Assembly (NCBI GenBank): GCA_944331915.1
Contig: CALVIR010000004.1
Span: forward strand, 2,427 to 66,426
Source of the DNA: an uncultured Bacilli bacterium
Lineage (GTDB): Bacteria > Bacillota_I > Bacilli_A > RF39 > UBA660
Direction: 5' to 3'
Length of the DNA: 64,000 bases
Part shown: in pieces, positions 6,693 through 48,279 of the stretch
Layout: every line of letters starts with the position of its first letter
How positions within the stretch are numbered: the first letter of the stretch is position 1
Notes under the pieces: model-generated
Told to the model about the DNA's origin: nothing
Database searches by the model: none
Seen by the model: the letters and a program-made list of their open reading frames with translations, nothing else
Translations under genes and position numbers: made by a program

Positions 6693-6714
6693 AAAAAAAC
6701 TACGATTTCGTAGT
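6693..6714 (-). terminator. Rho-independent terminator after the LemA-like gene
   Basis: The minus strand reads AACTACGaaatCGTAGTT followed by a T7 run. Confidence 0.65.
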
Positions 6715-7244
6715 TAATTCTTTAATATTTCAAAACTATCTCTTTTTTCAATCTTATAACTTTCAACATCTTGATAATGAGAAAAAGTTTTAACTAAATT
6801 AGCAGGAAACTTATGAGCCAAATAATTTATCTCTCCACTGTTATCGTTATAATACTTTAATGCTGCCCTTAAATCATTCTCATTTTCATTTAATTTATCT
6901 ATTAGAGGACTTATCTTTTCTAAATCAATTTTTCCATCATAATCATCAATAATATGAAGCATTTCATTAGTCATTTTCATTAGTTCTGTATATAACTCTC
7001 TATGATCTAGTCTTTGCATTTTTAACTTTCCAACCGGTGGTATATCCTTAATCTTTTCTTCTTCTAAGATAGGTACTATTTTTAATAAGATTTCTTCTTT
7101 TTTCTGTAGTAATATATCTAAATTATTATCCGCTTCTTTTACTTTAATATATAAAAATTCATATTTATTACGATAATACATAAAGGAAATAACAAATATC
7201 CCTATAATAATTACTAACACTCCCCCTATAATAGCATAAACCAT
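6714..7244 (-). CDS. LemA family membrane protein (putative)
   Basis: N-terminal TM helix, and C-terminal LKYYNDNSGEINYLAHKFPANLV resembling the LemA YN..V..YN..I..FP.N motif. ATG 7244 has better SD spacing than GTG 7253. Confidence 0.6.
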   Translation of the reverse strand: MVYAIIGGVLVIIIGIFVISFMYYRNKYEFLYIKVKEADNNLDILLQKKEEILLKIVPILEEEKIKDIPPVGKLKMQRLDHRELYTELMKMTNEMLHIIDDYDGKIDLEKISPLIDKLNENENDLRAALKYYNDNSGEINYLAHKFPANLVKTFSHYQDVESYKIEKRDSFEILKN

Positions 7245-42702: not shown

Positions 42703-43545
42703 ATGAAAAAGAAAAGATTTAATCGCATCTATGTAGAAATAACAAATAAATGTAATCTTTCCTGTTCCTTTTGCCCTAAGACTAAAAGACCATTAAAAGA
42801 AATGACCGTAAAAGACTTTTCTCTAATCATTACTAAAATTAAAGACTATACCAATACCATTTGTTTACATGTTAAAGGTGAACCGCTGCTTCATCAAAAA
42901 CTAGATGAGATTTTATCTATATGTGATGATAATAACATTAATGTAAGTCTTACAACTAATGGCACTCTTTTAAAAAGTAAGATTAGTGTATTAAAGAGTC
43001 ATAAATCACTCTCTAAAATACATATCTCCTTAAATGCTGAAACAAATAATTTAGACTATTCTGTTAATATCTTTAAACCAGTCTCTACTTTTCCACAGGA
43101 TAAGATAATTATCTACCGCCTTTGGGCTCAAAAATCTTCTCTTTTAGATAAGAAATCCACAGAAATTGTGGAAAAACTAAAAGAATATTATCATTTATCA
43201 GAAGAAACTGTTGAAAACATCAAGAATAATAAGAATACTAAAATAGATATCAACAAATATGTGGATAAAGATTTTCTATTTACTTGGCCTAGTAGTACAT
43301 CTGAAGAAACAACTCATAACTTTTGTGAAGGTTTAAAAAGTCAAATAGCTATATTAGTTGATGGCACAGTAATACCTTGTTGTCTAGATGATGAAGGTAA
43401 AATTCCGCTTGGAAATATTTTTGCTGAAGATTTAGTAACTATTTTAAATAAAGATAAAACTAAAAAAATCATAAAAGGCTTTCAAGACAATAAATGTGTA
43501 GAAAAACTCTGTCAGTCTTGTCAATACAAAAATAGATTTAAATAA
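42703..43545 (+). CDS. Radical SAM protein with C-terminal Cys-rich (SPASM/twitch-like) domain
   Basis: CNLSCSFCP (CxxxCxxC) near the N-terminus. C-terminal Cys cluster: PCCLDDEG...C...CQSCQ. Confidence 0.8.
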   Translation: MKKKRFNRIYVEITNKCNLSCSFCPKTKRPLKEMTVKDFSLIITKIKDYTNTICLHVKGEPLLHQKLDEILSICDDNNINVSLTTNGTLLKSKISVLKSHKSLSKIHISLNAETNNLDYSVNIFKPVSTFPQDKIIIYRLWAQKSSLLDKKSTEIVEKLKEYYHLSEETVENIKNNKNTKIDINKYVDKDFLFTWPSSTSEETTHNFCEGLKSQIAILVDGTVIPCCLDDEGKIPLGNIFAEDLVTILNKDKTKKIIKGFQDNKCVEKLCQSCQYKNRFK

Positions 43546-43565
43546 AATACTAATTTGTAAAAAAA
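43541..43565 (+). repeat. Direct repeat, left copy (AATAAAATACTAATTTGTAAAAAAA), overlapping the radical-SAM stop codon
   Basis: Exact 25-nt match to 45751..45775. The match extends to about 27 nt if the A-run differs by one base. Confidence 0.9.
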
Positions 43566-43754
43566 ACAAAATGATTAAAAAGTTACAAAACGACTTTTGG
43601 CGAAAGCTAATTTTGGAAGCTGGCGGTGTGGTTTTAGAAGAAAAGTCTATGCATTATATGTCAAAAGCTAAAAGATTATTAAATTTTAAAAAGTATTTCA
43701 GACCATACCCCTATAGAATATTTGTTATAAAATCATCAAATAAAATTTAATGTG

Positions 43755-43763
43755 TGCTATAAT
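43755..43763 (+). promoter_or_regulatory. Extended -10 element (TGcTATAAT) for the CYTH cassette operon
   Basis: Read directly, 25 nt upstream of ATG 43789. The -35 box is weak. Confidence 0.45.
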
Positions 43764-43788
43764 GATTAATATATAGGAGTTGATAAAA

Positions 43789-44583
43789 ATGGCAAAGTTT
43801 GAAAAAGAAATTAAAGTTTTAGATATTAATGTCGAAGAGACAATATCTAAATTAAAAAAGATTGGTGCAACAGATAAAGGAAAAAAAGAACAAAAAATAT
43901 ATACTTATGATATACCTACTATATATTATAGATATTTGGAAATAAAGAGTTTGTTAAAATCTGATAATGAATTACTAATTAATGTTTCAATGGGCAAATT
44001 AAAAGTGCTTTTAGATGAGCTTGAAGATTTAATTGATAACGATATGTTAGATAAAATATGTAGTGAAATGGACATAAAGAGAATTAAAGACTTATTAAGT
44101 ATTAAAAAGGAAGATATTCTTGAGAAGTTTGAAAACAGTAAAACTTTTAATAATATTGTTAAAGAAAAATTAATTAATCCTAATAAATGGATTAGACTTA
44201 GAAAAAGTAATGATACAATTGAATTGACTGTTAAACATATATATCAAAAGTCAAATGATAAAATACAGAAGGTAAAAGAGTATGAAACTAATGTATCTGA
44301 CTTTGAGGAAACAAATAGAATTTTAACGAGTATTGGGATAATAAGAAGAAATTATCAAGAAAAAGAAAGACATAGTTTTAAATACAAAGATGCTGACATA
44401 GAAATTGATATATGGCCTCTTTTAGAGCCATATATGGAGATAGAATGTGACAGTGAAAATACAATTGCTGAAATATTAAAGAAACTAGAATTAGAAAATA
44501 AAGAAATTGTATCTATAAATACAGAACAATTGTATAAAAGAAAAGATATAGATGTTTTAAAAATTTCTGATTTAAGATTTTAA
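43789..44583 (+). CDS. CYTH (CyaB/thiamine-triphosphatase, triphosphate tunnel) domain protein with a long helical insertion
   Basis: N-terminal ExExK-type strand (FEKEIKV), WIRLRK, ELTVKH, EYE..V, and C-terminal DIEIDIWPLLEPYMEIE resembling the class IV cyclase/CYTH strands. About 85 extra residues lie between strands. RBS AGGAG before ATG 43789. Confidence 0.6.
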   Translation: MAKFEKEIKVLDINVEETISKLKKIGATDKGKKEQKIYTYDIPTIYYRYLEIKSLLKSDNELLINVSMGKLKVLLDELEDLIDNDMLDKICSEMDIKRIKDLLSIKKEDILEKFENSKTFNNIVKEKLINPNKWIRLRKSNDTIELTVKHIYQKSNDKIQKVKEYETNVSDFEETNRILTSIGIIRRNYQEKERHSFKYKDADIEIDIWPLLEPYMEIECDSENTIAEILKKLELENKEIVSINTEQLYKRKDIDVLKISDLRF

Positions 44584-44606
44584 ATGTTATTAATGGAGGT
44601 AACTTT

Positions 44607-45284
44607 ATGGGGGAACGAGGAAATAAAAAAGTTGATTTTATTGCAAGTGATAATATGATTAATAAAGCATTAGATAAATATAAGAAAAATAGCAAAGTAT
44701 ATACTAAAATTTTAGAGGCTTTGCAAATTTTAGGAAGCTTTAATGATAAGATAGTAATTGATTTGTATGAAATAAAAGAAGAAAATAACGATTATACTAT
44801 TAAGGTATGGTGCTGTGATGAAAATAGTAATATATTTATATTTACATTATTTTCTACATTAAAGAATAATATGTTAGTACTTTATAGAATAACTGATGAT
44901 AAGGAAGAAAAATATAATTTGTCATTATTAAAGAAATATGCTTTAACAAAGGATAATATAGCTTTAGCAAGAACTTCAAAAGTATATAATCATAAATATG
45001 GCAGATTAATTACTGATGATGAAAGCTTTTATAGTTTGTTTTTAAGCAATAATCAATGTTACCAAATAATTATTGACTATATTGTTAAACCAAATGAATT
45101 ATTAAGTAAAAACATCATTTTCTCATTAAATAATTGTGATACCTCTCCAACATTTCAAAGTTATATGGATATTTTTTATAATATAATAAAACAAAAAAAT
45201 TTAAATTTTAACCAAGTATATATTTATGCATATAAGGATTTTGAAAAAATAACAGCATTAAATATTAATAATAAAGAATATTAA
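44607..45284 (+). CDS. Hypothetical protein (225 aa), second gene of the repeat-bounded cassette
   Basis: ORF with GGAGG 8 nt upstream, starting 23 nt after the CYTH gene. No TM helix, signal peptide or known motif recognised. Confidence 0.6.
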   Translation: MGERGNKKVDFIASDNMINKALDKYKKNSKVYTKILEALQILGSFNDKIVIDLYEIKEENNDYTIKVWCCDENSNIFIFTLFSTLKNNMLVLYRITDDKEEKYNLSLLKKYALTKDNIALARTSKVYNHKYGRLITDDESFYSLFLSNNQCYQIIIDYIVKPNELLSKNIIFSLNNCDTSPTFQSYMDIFYNIIKQKNLNFNQVYIYAYKDFEKITALNINNKEY

Positions 45285-45327
45285 AAGAAAAACTTTATAG
45301 TGGAAACAGTAATATTTGAGGTGGAAA

Positions 45328-45624
45328 ATGATGAGTAGTAAAAGAAAATTAAATGGATTAGAAGAAACAATAAACGATAACAACATTATGGAGGTAATTG
45401 ATATTTTTCAATTACAAAAAGGCTTAATTGTGCTAGGGTGTATTATTGGTAAAAAAAATAATGCTTATAAAGTATATCTTTACATAGAAAAAGATAATAA
45501 TATAATTTCTAAATTATATGAAAAAAAGTTTTCTTTAGAAAATAAAGATAATGCTATGGCATATTTTTCTAACCTAAAGAAAATGGTTACCCTTAATAGC
45601 AATGAAGTAGTAAATTTGATATAG
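45328..45624 (+). CDS. Hypothetical protein (98 aa), third gene of the repeat-bounded cassette
   Basis: GAGGTGG precedes ATG 45328, and a weak terminator hairpin follows. No motif recognised. Confidence 0.5.
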   Translation: MMSSKRKLNGLEETINDNNIMEVIDIFQLQKGLIVLGCIIGKKNNAYKVYLYIEKDNNIISKLYEKKFSLENKDNAMAYFSNLKKMVTLNSNEVVNLI

Positions 45625-45630
45625 TAATTG

Positions 45631-45656
45631 AAAGTGCTTAGGCATTTTCTTTTATT
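45631..45656 (+). terminator. Weak terminator at the end of the cassette operon
   Basis: AAAGTGC(ttag)GCATTTT (one G-U pair), then CTTTTATT. Confidence 0.4.
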
Positions 45657-45662
45657 GAAGTA

Positions 45663-45689
45663 AATTTGGTGTGAATTTGGTGTAAATTT
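45663..45689 (+). repeat. Tandem 11-nt repeat, about 2.5 copies (AATTTGGTGTG AATTTGGTGTA AATTT)
   Basis: Read directly from the sequence. Lies between the cassette terminator and an outward-facing promoter. Confidence 0.85.
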
Positions 45690-45693
45690 ATAG

Positions 45694-45721
45694 TTGATAT
45701 TGATTTGTCAAGTGATATAAT
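45694..45721 (+). promoter_or_regulatory. Promoter at the cassette's right end, facing secE (TTGATA-16-TGaTATAAT)
   Basis: Hexamers read directly. Located upstream of the right direct repeat. Confidence 0.5.
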
Positions 45722-45750
45722 ATGATTAAATTGAAATTATTCCAATTAAT

Positions 45751-45775
45751 AATAAAATACTAATTTGTAAAAAAA
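45751..45775 (+). repeat. Direct repeat, right copy, 2 nt upstream of the secE -35 box
   Basis: Exact 25-nt match to 43541..43565. Confidence 0.9.
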
Positions 45776-45806: not shown

Positions 45807-45863
45807 ACAAGTAAGCACTGAGAAGTGTTTTTCTTTTAGAAAAAAATGAAGGAAGAGATTTGT

Positions 45864-46127
45864 ATGACAAAGAAGAATCTAGAAACAAAAAACAAAAAAA
45901 ATACTACAAAACAAACAACAAAGAAAAAAGAAGAAAAAGTAAATATTTTTACTAAAATTGGTAACTTTATTAAAGGAGTTAAAACAGAATTTAAAAGAAT
46001 TAAATGGCCAAGTAAAAAAGAGTTAATTAAATATTCAGTTGTTACAATTATCTTTATAATTTTTTGTGCTTTATTCTTTTATTTAATCGATATAATTATC
46101 GCTGCTTTACACTCATTATTTAGTTAG
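45864..46127 (+). CDS. secE: Preprotein translocase subunit SecE
   Basis: Lys-rich N-terminus, then F..V..E.KRI.WPSKKEL and a single C-terminal TM helix. Upstream of nusG. ATG 45864 follows GAAGGAAGAG. Confidence 0.88.
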   Translation: MTKKNLETKNKKNTTKQTTKKKEEKVNIFTKIGNFIKGVKTEFKRIKWPSKKELIKYSVVTIIFIIFCALFFYLIDIIIAALHSLFS

Positions 46128-48120: not shown

Positions 48121-48279
48121 AGATTTATAGAATATAATAAACATGAAATTTCGTTAATCAGTGCCAAAGACAGTAGGTAATTTGTAAATCCTACCGAGGA
48201 CTACTTAAATAAATAAAAAGTTCTTGGTAGTATACTGAGAACTTTTTTGCACTGACTAAGAAAATTAGGAGGGAAGAAA
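48121..48279 (+). promoter_or_regulatory. Ribosomal protein L10 (rplJL) leader with terminator-type attenuator
   Basis: 159-nt structured leader. GCCAAAGACAGTAGG...CCTACCGAGG forms a helix reminiscent of the L10(L12)4 binding site. It is followed by the hairpin AAAAGTTCT(n13)AGAACTTTT plus a T-run (48216..48248), just before the RBS. Confidence 0.6.

Follow-up and report, generated by a model that had tools for sequence, protein, structure and literature searches.

Members of the CYTH/triphosphate-tunnel metalloenzyme (TTM) superfamily can be told apart by a small number of motifs: the cyclases carry HFxxxxExExK, have a small residue where xRxR would start with its first Arg, and show an ExA motif, the thiamine triphosphatases carry W/YxRxR, with the Trp stacking on the substrate ring, and the hydrolases retain ExE (Vogt et al., PMC8233210). 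One gene of this superfamily, accompanied by the two open reading frames (ORFs) ORF2 and ORF3, is the subject of the present study; the three lie together on a short insert within a stretch of 64,000 nucleotides from an uncultured Bacilli bacterium (GenBank assembly GCA_944331915.1, contig CALVIR010000004.1, positions 2,427 to 66,426 of the forward strand), which is called the window throughout and in which position 1 is the first letter. Contigs used for comparison are given L numbers, and coordinates within them are preceded by that number.

As far as bacterial viperins (pVips) are concerned, the described partner is a nucleotide kinase, found with 12% of them, and the paper in question mentions neither methyltransferases nor CYTH proteins as partners (10.1101/2023.09.13.557418). 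Our own search of the literature returned nothing that pairs viperins with CYTH proteins, triphosphate-tunnel enzymes or U32 proteins in bacteria. With regard to mobile DNA, accretion of the type known from cis-mobilizable elements (CIMEs) leaves non-autonomous remnants of integrative elements flanked by attachment (att) sites, as with ICESt1/ICESt3 in Streptococcus, and a direct repeat that extends over a conserved gene's 3' end, leaving that gene restored, is the typical att signature of integrase-mediated insertion by integrative conjugative elements (ICEs) and phages. The insertion sequences IS1634 and IS1549, in Mycoplasma and Mycobacterium, give rise to target duplications of variable length, reported as 8-514 bp (PMC2266710).

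In the reading that we put forward, with a probability of roughly 0.6, the window holds a truncated fragment of a viperin cluster that was inserted before secE of Candidatus Onthousia faecavium, and not a complete system.

An insertion between a radical-SAM gene and secE

The insert is enclosed by two copies of the 25-mer AATAAAATACTAATTTGTAAAAAAA and, from left to right, the following features can be distinguished:

43541..43565, forward strand: left copy of the exact 25-nt repeat, the original target, covering the stop codon of a radical S-adenosylmethionine (SAM)/SPASM gene
43566..43591, forward strand: junction filler of 26 nt (ACAAAATGATTAAAAAGTTACAAAAC), which supplies the ATG of a fortuitous 59-codon ORF
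43592..43750, forward strand: 3' fragment (last 52 codons plus stop) of MT2, a class-I SAM methyltransferase gene; pseudogene remnant
43755..43763, forward strand: putative extended -10 element TGcTATAAT upstream of the CYTH gene, read in the sequence and conserved in L010
43789..44583, forward strand: CYTH/triphosphate-tunnel metalloenzyme gene, 264 aa, Pfam CYTH above cut-off
44607..45284, forward strand: ORF2, 225 aa, uncharacterised family with a confident predicted fold
45328..45624, forward strand: ORF3, 98 aa, lineage-restricted orphan ORF
45630..45657, forward strand: terminator-like hairpin and T-run after ORF3, 8-bp stem with 3 GC pairs, conserved in L010 and L021
45658..45750, forward strand: right-end non-coding segment of 93 bp, with a promoter-like TTGATA-16-TATAAT with TG (45694-45721) facing secE
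45751..45775, forward strand: right copy of the 25-nt repeat, ending 2 nt ahead of TTGACT, the secE -35 box

Exactly two copies of the 25-mer are present in the window, with no further one even at 3 mismatches and none expected in 100 shuffles, and between them they enclose 2,185 bp with three intact genes. The radical-SAM/SPASM gene (42703-43545, 280 aa) has its TAA stop (43543-43545) within the left copy, and secE (45864-46127) lies downstream of the right copy. An initial annotation of the window had recorded both the repeat and its placement over the stop codon and just before the secE promoter, and the sequence confirms this; the three ORFs, each with a GGAG-type Shine-Dalgarno sequence ahead, and the TGcTATAAT element are likewise present where it had placed them, and a hairpin with a T-run lies at 45630-45649. 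The -10 element has no matching -35 box and was hence missed by a consensus promoter scan. The target duplication measures 25 bp, or 27 bp when one extra A, a slip of 1 nt, is tolerated in the A-run on the left. GC content is 21-24% within the insert as against 29-37% in the flanking genes, and the surroundings are made up of core genes, namely ftsEX, an M23 peptidase gene and uvrB, and then secE-nusG-rplKAJL-rpoBC.

Scanning species-representative genomes with the radical-SAM protein yielded nine loci. The metagenome-assembled genome (MAG) L012, from Candidatus Onthousia faecavium, shows 97-99% identity to the window in uvrB, the radical-SAM gene, secE, nusG and rplK, and its site is empty: the radical-SAM stop and a single 25-mer (L012:3256-3280) lead directly into the secE promoter. 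Since this genome is conspecific, the insertion is real and strain-polymorphic. In the more distant Onthousia-like genomes L016, L018 and L019 the site is also empty; the spacer there has diverged and nothing is duplicated. The filled allele is shared, at 100% identity, by at least five independent assemblies from chicken gut (L024, L025, L026, L028, L050, L053) and is thus not an assembly artefact. Taken together, these comparisons show that the 2,185-bp segment is a recent, strain-polymorphic insertion between the radical-SAM/SPASM gene and secE, and the polarity is clear, the empty site being ancestral and the filled one derived. The site-specific insertion proposed in the initial annotation, which had named an empty site with a single 25-mer as its check, is therefore upheld.

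An ancestral presence of the three genes at this locus, with L012 emptied by deletion between the 25-mers, is extremely improbable. Recombination between the 25-nt repeats would indeed yield the exact L012 sequence, but both the genes and the duplication are lacking in all outgroup species (relatives that all carry the genes here without repeats had been named as evidence against insertion, and the outgroups do not carry them). Moreover, the segment starts with a truncated gene whose full-length form is found elsewhere at 99-100% identity, and its GC content is deviant.

As had been noted initially, no integrase or transposase lies inside the insert, whether sought as ORF or as domain (ORF, Pfam and NCBIfam scans), and no recombinase was found in the insert or the neighbouring rest of the 64-kb window. 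Its ends do not form terminal inverted repeats, the end alignment scoring 19 against a shuffle mean of 19.6. Cargo borne by a phage or plasmid was considered and rejected: the insert has no blastn match in phage and plasmid collections, PHROGs gave no match, and the CYTH and ORF2 families have no relatives in IMG/VR, where the 25-mer was not found either.

The insert as the 3' part of a viperin-like cluster

An intact version of the cluster is found in L010, L011 and L029, where a TehB-like methyltransferase gene (MT1), a gene for a 256-aa radical-SAM protein, MT2, CYTH, ORF2 and ORF3 follow one another in this order. Nucleotide identity to the window is 98.4-98.6% for L010 and L011 and 99.9% for L029, which has a full MT2 as well. 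Window positions 43592-45743 are 98.4% identical to L010, in which MT2 is full length and the 256-aa radical-SAM gene lies ahead of it. At the amino acid level, the MT2 fragment in the window agrees to 100% with the C-terminal end of the 215-aa, full-length gene of all three contigs, and the DNA homology to every donor-type contig begins at 43592/43593; the 59-codon ORF (43571-43750), which has no match in PADLOC-DB v2, is this remnant fused to the ATG of the filler. The filler itself matches neither the empty site nor the donor cluster and, among the loci examined, was seen only in contigs with the same allele. These alignments show that the insert is the 5'-truncated 3' part of a larger accessory cluster, cut inside MT2. 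With MT2 truncated and the producer genes absent, the insert is not self-contained, contrary to the initial annotation, which had taken 43566-43788 as a promoter region and overlooked the MT2 fragment. The insert is also very young, because its CYTH protein is identical to those of L027 and L029.

The 256-aa gene stands upstream of CYTH-ORF2 homologs in the following contigs:

L010:417-1187: 256-aa viperin-like radical-SAM gene
L030:3318-4088: 256-aa viperin-like radical-SAM gene
L031:983-1753: 256-aa viperin-like radical-SAM gene

Its product matches the PADLOC pVip models over the full length of the models (E 1e-44 to 1e-46), and its best NCBIfam match by far is viperin_w_prok (NF038283, 'viperin family antiviral radical SAM protein', E 1.4e-40). 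Among PDB sequences, viperins and viperin-like enzymes take all of the first nine places, with MoaA at only 6e-6. The likeness to pVip loci consists in the position of the insert genes, directly downstream of this pVip-matching protein in sister strains and in distant relatives; the difference is that the window has no viperin-family enzyme. A tblastn search of the window with the L010 viperin-like protein returned only the unrelated radical-SAM/SPASM gene (32% over 101 aa), whose best NCBIfam matches are SPASM maturases. The window locus is thus not a pVip system, and its parent cluster looks like one with new partners.

L010 and L011, although from different samples and assemblers, start at the same base inside the TehB-like methyltransferase gene, and the examined intact-cluster contigs that are near-identical to the window (L010, L011, L027, L029) are 2-4 kb long, with low coverage where recorded. 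The shared start and the short, low-coverage contigs suggest a repeat or a strain-variable boundary there. Longer contigs with the intact cluster exist.

Conservation of the cluster and its alternative contexts

Parts of the same arrangement recur in more distant relatives. For instance, L030 has MT1, the viperin-like gene, CYTH (~61% identity) and ORF2 (41%), L031 has MT1, the viperin-like gene, MT2, CYTH (56%) and ORF2 (40%), and L045 has MT2, CYTH and ORF2. An NCBI MAG with P0062 carries a U32-like and a DAHP-synthase-like gene, MT1, the viperin-like gene, two small genes, MT2 and CYTH; the same context also holds a gene resembling metallo-β-lactamases (MBL) and Apyc1. Altogether, CYTH has methyltransferase, viperin-like and ORF2 genes as repeated neighbours in 7 of 11 distinct contexts. 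The pairing of CYTH with ORF2 is genuine and recurs at deep divergence, so that the co-occurrence anticipated for the three genes holds for this pair (L030, L031, L045) and fails for ORF3, which is confined to three near-identical protein clusters. In L056, a CYTH gene that is otherwise alone is closely preceded by a remnant of 27 codons from the C-terminus of a viperin-like gene (L056:5791-5871, 56% identity), which hints that lone CYTH genes may derive from decayed clusters.

The insert module itself is found in at least five contexts at 90-99% nucleotide identity, with different breakpoints in each. In addition to the site before secE, these include the following (the ends are given as window positions):

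L007-L009: after infB, preceded by a fusion of a helix-turn-helix ORF with the viperin-like gene's C-terminal half; ends 45306/45348
L021: beside a truncated TraG/VirD4 gene and a 540-aa large serine recombinase; ends 45668
L022, L023: before an nfeD/band-7 operon; ORF2 and ORF3 are fused through an internal deletion; homology ends 45750

In L022, the counterpart of the segment 45658-45750 lies directly upstream of the nfeD/band-7 operon, and the homology stops exactly at 45750; the nfeD flank of this donor, which would define the right end of an island, is absent from the window and from the other loci. The varying breakpoints indicate recombinational shuffling of an accessory cluster and not the movement of a unit with fixed ends. 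They bear directly on a different account, in which CYTH, ORF2 and ORF3 form a stand-alone defence or signalling module that moves as a unit. Such a module would explain why the ORFs are intact and close-packed, with a promoter-like element and a terminator of their own, why CYTH and ORF2 co-occur at 56-61% and 40% identity, and why several contexts share the module at 90-99% identity. However, the unit begins with a gene fragment, and its breakpoints lie at 45306, 45348, 45668 and 45750 on the right and mid-viperin or mid-methyltransferase on the left, which leaves no fixed three-gene unit. Furthermore, ORF3 is missing in all distant clusters, there are no PADLOC matches, and the motifs of the CYTH protein oppose second-messenger synthesis. 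We therefore regard a stand-alone module as distinctly unlikely.

Homologs of ORF2 that are not accompanied by CYTH close operons in L038 and L042 and lie between two GreA-like genes in L041. The two operons, from the human gut, have neither CYTH nor a viperin-like gene:

L038:1702-6714: operon closed by an ORF2 homolog
L042:19-3045: operon closed by an ORF2 homolog

Their genes encode U32-like, HAD, P-loop kinase, M23 peptidase, Ham1-like NTP pyrophosphatase, methyltransferase and DAHP-synthase-like proteins, and U32-like, DAHP-synthase-like, Ham1-like and GreA-like genes are often near the cluster. GreA/GreB-like paralogs adjoin CYTH in L005 (L005:5422-5916), are found close upstream of it in L001 (L001:4506-5009), and stand on either side of ORF2 in L041 (L041:5321-5935 and 6696-7175). 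A transcript-cleavage factor beside a possible chain-terminator pathway is suggestive.

The CYTH protein

The Pfam model CYTH (PF01928) matches the 264-aa protein with 26.1 bits (cut-off 23.2), and because of a helical insertion the match is limited to residues 131-238. The AlphaFold2 (AF2) model (mean predicted local distance difference test score, pLDDT, 93.1) shows the triphosphate-tunnel fold, with an all-helical insertion of about 85 residues (residues ~43-127, six helices) between strands 2 and 3. In Foldseek, the top match of this model is SaTTM (7ns9), a Sulfolobus triphosphatase, with E 4e-12 and a template modelling (TM) score of 0.77 on the target; further matches include Pyrococcus CYTH proteins, AtTTM3 and the Yersinia class IV cyclase. 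Most of the 54 matches at E <= 0.001 are to structures of TTM, CYTH and class IV cyclase proteins, and Mediator Med18/20 chains come further down the list. In the comparison by sequence, SaTTM was likewise the sole match in PDB. More than 360 full-length homologs (262-267 aa, 53-98% identity) come from uncultured gut Bacilli, and JGI labels homologs 'adenylate cyclase class 2/IV'.

Motif invariance was read from a 40-member family alignment, in which E5, E7, K9, W134, R136, R138, K149, E164, E166, R194, E205, D207, E217 and E219 are invariant. The N-terminal ExExK (E5-K-E7-I-K9) belongs to this set, as does W134-I-R136-L-R138, which aligns with A-L-R-L-R of SaTTM; the ExE motif (E217-I-E219) is intact, and only MAKF precedes E5, so that there is no HF motif. 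The protein is a member of the CYTH/TTM superfamily, showing each of the defining features that were tested. Both the fold named in the initial annotation and the acidic and basic tunnel residues on which it had made the case depend are accordingly present, the latter invariant throughout the family.

From the lack of HF, the WxRxR motif and the intact ExE, we predict a thiamine-triphosphatase-type hydrolase. More specifically, the residues point to a catalytically complete, thiamine-triphosphatase-like two-metal hydrolase, which would act on an organic triphosphate whose ring is held on Trp134. A class IV adenylyl cyclase, one of the options initially listed, is contradicted by the published signature motifs (PMC8233210): the protein lacks all three signature features, and TIGR00318 reaches 23.8 bits as against a cut-off of 57.95. 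CyaB shares superfamily and fold with the window protein (2fjt and 3n10 are among the Foldseek matches), whereas the latter has no HF motif and has lost neither the first Arg of xRxR nor, in ExE, the second Glu.

Compared with its closest described relatives SaTTM, CthTTM and NeuTTM (PF01928), the protein has in common the eight-stranded tunnel fold, ExExK, the paired Arg, the Lys and the ExE plus ExD set, but none of the matched structures has a helical insertion of ~85 residues. SaTTM has Ala where the window protein has Trp, and sequence identity is only ~19%. Mammalian thiamine triphosphatase (ThTPase) shares the W/YxRxR motif (PMC8233210; W134-x-R136-x-R138 in the window), though it is distant (Foldseek E 1e-5, 10-12% identity). 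The two also differ in setting, the window protein being bacterial and encoded beside nucleotide-modifying genes, and its substrate may be a nucleotide.

These properties raise the question of whether CYTH might simply be a relocated housekeeping gene, that is, a lineage-wide metabolic triphosphatase for inorganic or thiamine triphosphate, whose neighbours are incidental and whose shuffling is neutral. The breadth of the family in gut Bacilli and its strong purifying selection would fit such a role, as would several CYTH genes that stand alone among core genes (asnS, greA-like, nrdD, ftsJ) and the WxRxR signature of thiamine triphosphatases. Even so, we consider it unlikely, since genes of the cluster lie beside CYTH in 7 of the 11 contexts, including the viperin remnant beside a seemingly lone copy, since the conspecific L012 has no CYTH gene at the site, and since low GC content and multiple contexts above 90% identity amount to accessory behaviour.

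ORF2 and ORF3

In a word-indexed search ORF2 appeared orphan-like, with only 4 matches; an exhaustive phmmer search, on the other hand, gave a family of 88 representative clusters, mostly full length and 30-41% identical, and the scan of ORF2 loci was run with a nine-sequence subset of the alignment. The invariant residues (K109, R133, N175) include ones within an FKFGRLITD motif. The AF2 model is confident (pLDDT 92.8, predicted TM score 0.87), and it matches no fold in PDB or BFVD, the best TM score being below 0.3; the profile likewise found no relative among PDB sequences and no family in Pfam. Compared with L010, L021 and L007, the window has an 11-nt deletion (window 45271-45284) peculiar to its allele, which leaves ORF2 with 225 aa instead of 234; the C-terminal tail that it affects is unconserved and poorly modelled.

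ORF3 is of a different kind, as only 3 near-identical clusters were found among 5.8 billion proteins. It is absent or deleted in L007 and L022, and no homolog was detected downstream of ORF2 in the sequence examined of L030 and L031. The idea that ORF3 is a partial duplicate of ORF2 was tried and rejected (hhalign probability 0.6%). Neither protein gave a meaningful match in PADLOC, PHROGs, Pfam or NCBIfam.

The ratio of nonsynonymous to synonymous substitution (dN/dS) is 0.13-0.28 for CYTH and 0.29-0.43 for ORF2. Judged by these values (0.13-0.43 overall), both are shown to be real genes under purifying selection. For ORF3, dN/dS is 0.65-1.09, on few substitutions; it has little sign of constraint and is not a conserved partner.

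Element X and the route of insertion

The site between the radical-SAM gene and secE has received more than one insertion. In L026 and L028 the right 25-mer and a C are followed by GGTTAATTTAAATTATGAAATCCCGTTTGGATATCCCG... in place of the secE promoter, and in L049 the sequence ahead of secE reads ...CGGGATATCC...AACGGGATATCAATATTTTAATTAAC and then AATTTGTAAAAAAAC. These sequences are the two ends of what we call element X:

L026:11989-12043: element X, abutting the insert, at the site equivalent to window 45776
L028:2255-2284: element X, abutting the insert, at the same site
L049:1-73: element X, abutting secE, at the same site

The ends of X match each other as inverted repeats, with a score of 48 where shuffles reach at most 37; they are imperfect and contain the motifs GGATATCCCG and ATCCCGTTTG. 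X is flanked by a 15-bp direct repeat, AATTTGTAAAAAAAC, which is nested in the 25-mer, and the two duplications, of 15 bp for X and 25 bp for the insert, have a nearly common right edge. Given its inverted ends and the nested repeat, X is a second element at the same site. Its end sequences are absent from the window, the other loci and IMG/VR, with only a chance-level match in phages, and the ends of the insert do not resemble them. At least three alleles therefore circulate: empty, insert, and insert plus X. Four other Onthousia loci hold unrelated cargo in the same spacer, consisting of an ORF of 178-182 aa with or without an opposite-strand ORF of 309 aa:

L013:6932-7468: cargo in the spacer between the radical-SAM gene and secE
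L015:6926-7462: cargo in the same spacer
L014:2905-4400: cargo in the same spacer
L017:4178-5700: cargo in the same spacer

Long direct repeats around the cargo of these four loci were looked for and none was found. With different cargo in other species and X in other strains, the site is a hotspot, and recombination at a site repeatedly used by mobile DNA is the favoured route of insertion. Either a whole island would have integrated at the 25-mer and then lost its left part, or a fragment would have been captured at a site that is repeatedly broken by mobile DNA.

The first of these routes corresponds to a more specific proposal, in which an island at an att site overlapping the 3' end of the radical-SAM gene lost its left part together with its recombinase and left an attL/attR remnant that could be mobilised in trans. 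This is compatible with a truncated viperin-cluster fragment and differs from it only on the route of insertion. A repeat that spans and restores the stop codon of a conserved gene is a typical integrase signature, X lies in tandem at the right repeat with its 15-bp repeat nested in the 25-mer, the L021 module stands beside a truncated TraG/VirD4 gene and a large serine recombinase, and the L010 contig stops 7 nt short of the position of the 25-mer. On the other hand, no recombinase is present in the insert or its neighbourhood in the window, and that of L021 lies in an unrelated context; the insert ends are unlike those of X, whose inverted repeats abut its direct repeat and are thus more transposon- than integrase-like, and the 25-mer is missing from IMG/VR. 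Overall, a decayed integrative element is possible but less likely than not. In L021 (L021:1955-4876) the module is followed by the truncated TraG/VirD4 gene, a 69-aa ORF, the 540-aa recombinase and then the 3' end of an ftsW/rodA-like gene, an arrangement that looks like a decayed ICE.

In comparison with described elements, the insert resembles CIME-type remnants in its direct repeats overlapping the 3' end of a core gene, in having no internal recombinase and in the tandem second element; it differs in that no cognate integrase was identified, that X has transposon-like inverted repeats and that the cargo starts mid-gene. IS1634 and IS1549 offer an analogy for long target duplications (15 bp for X, 25 bp for the insert), although the insert has neither inverted ends nor a transposase.

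Other features of the neighbourhood

Between the secE promoter and its ribosome-binding site, a hairpin with a U-run (AAGCACTGAGAAGTGTTTTTCTTTT, 45811-45838) is kept across Onthousia species; considered as a structured element it was rejected, since it folds no better than shuffles (z -0.95). Upstream of rplJ, an L10 leader at 48146-48257 (Rfam RF00557, 51 bits) is an ordinary feature. It was the only element found by Rfam at gathering threshold, with no match in the insert.

Weighing the evidence for a truncated cluster

Several points weigh against the reading that the window holds a truncated viperin-cluster fragment. The viperin-like protein scores 139 bits with NF038283, under the curated equivalog cut-off of 180. 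CYTH occurs without a viperin-like gene in L003 (after asnS), L005 (after greA-like) and L022 (before nfeD), and many ORF2 homologs occur without CYTH (L032-L041, L043); because of these lone CYTH and ORF2 homologs, a functional link to viperin chemistry is not obligatory. Known defence models (PADLOC-DB v2) give no match for CYTH, ORF2 or ORF3, the sole hit for CYTH being a chance-level one to Cas5d (E 0.0025). This, and a location in a core region and not in a defence island, also speaks against the fit to a defence pattern that had been suggested initially. With respect to the insertion event, the flanks of the intact cluster were not seen in the contigs examined, where island integration plus deletion cannot be separated from fragment capture; a 25-bp duplication with neither terminal inverted repeats nor a recombinase has no established mechanism; and no other copy of the 26-nt filler was found in the window or any locus, up to 5 mismatches, as a source.

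If the window does hold such a fragment, what is left would be an MT2 stub, the CYTH gene with its extended -10 promoter, ORF2, ORF3, a terminator and an outward-facing promoter. The CYTH protein would remove phosphate from an organic triphosphate whose ring is stacked on Trp134, as in thiamine triphosphatase. In the parent cluster, its substrate would most likely be a nucleotide that the viperin-like enzyme and the methyltransferases produce or modify, and its role might be either to mature the product or to guard the host from being poisoned by it. ORF2 would be a conserved partner, which either deals with this metabolite as well or acts as a regulator of the enzyme. The trio in the window, lacking the producers, would be a functional remnant and at most a stand-alone triphosphatase with its partner. 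We infer the substrate, the link to viperin chemistry, any defence role and the insertion mechanism, any defence role solely from the linkage to a viperin-like gene that is absent from the window.

One may go further and regard CYTH and ORF2 as dedicated parts of an undescribed branch of viperin-type nucleotide chemistry in gut Bacilli, which would make or detoxify a modified (e.g. methylated) 3'-deoxy-3',4'-didehydro (ddh) nucleotide and of which the window would keep the product-handling or product-neutralising part. This proposal is tentative, and we hold it to be rather doubtful.

Implications

If the linkage proves incidental, the locus would be an ordinary strain-specific indel with a housekeeping-type enzyme. 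If it is functional, viperin-like enzymes would exist with methyltransferases and a triphosphate-tunnel hydrolase that replaces the kinase partner, which may extend antiviral or signalling nucleotides beyond the ddh-nucleoside triphosphates (ddh-NTPs) described so far, and it would give a first handle on the 88-cluster ORF2 family, for which no fold is recognisable. The CYTH subfamily, defined by its helical insertion and WxRxR motif, can be put to the test as a candidate hydrolase of a nucleotide or of thiamine triphosphate in uncultured gut Bacilli. The site before secE, in turn, provides a clean natural series of alleles (empty, filled and doubly filled) in which the target duplications are unusually long. 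The interesting biology, namely that of the parent cluster and of the new-fold ORF2 family, lies mostly outside the window.

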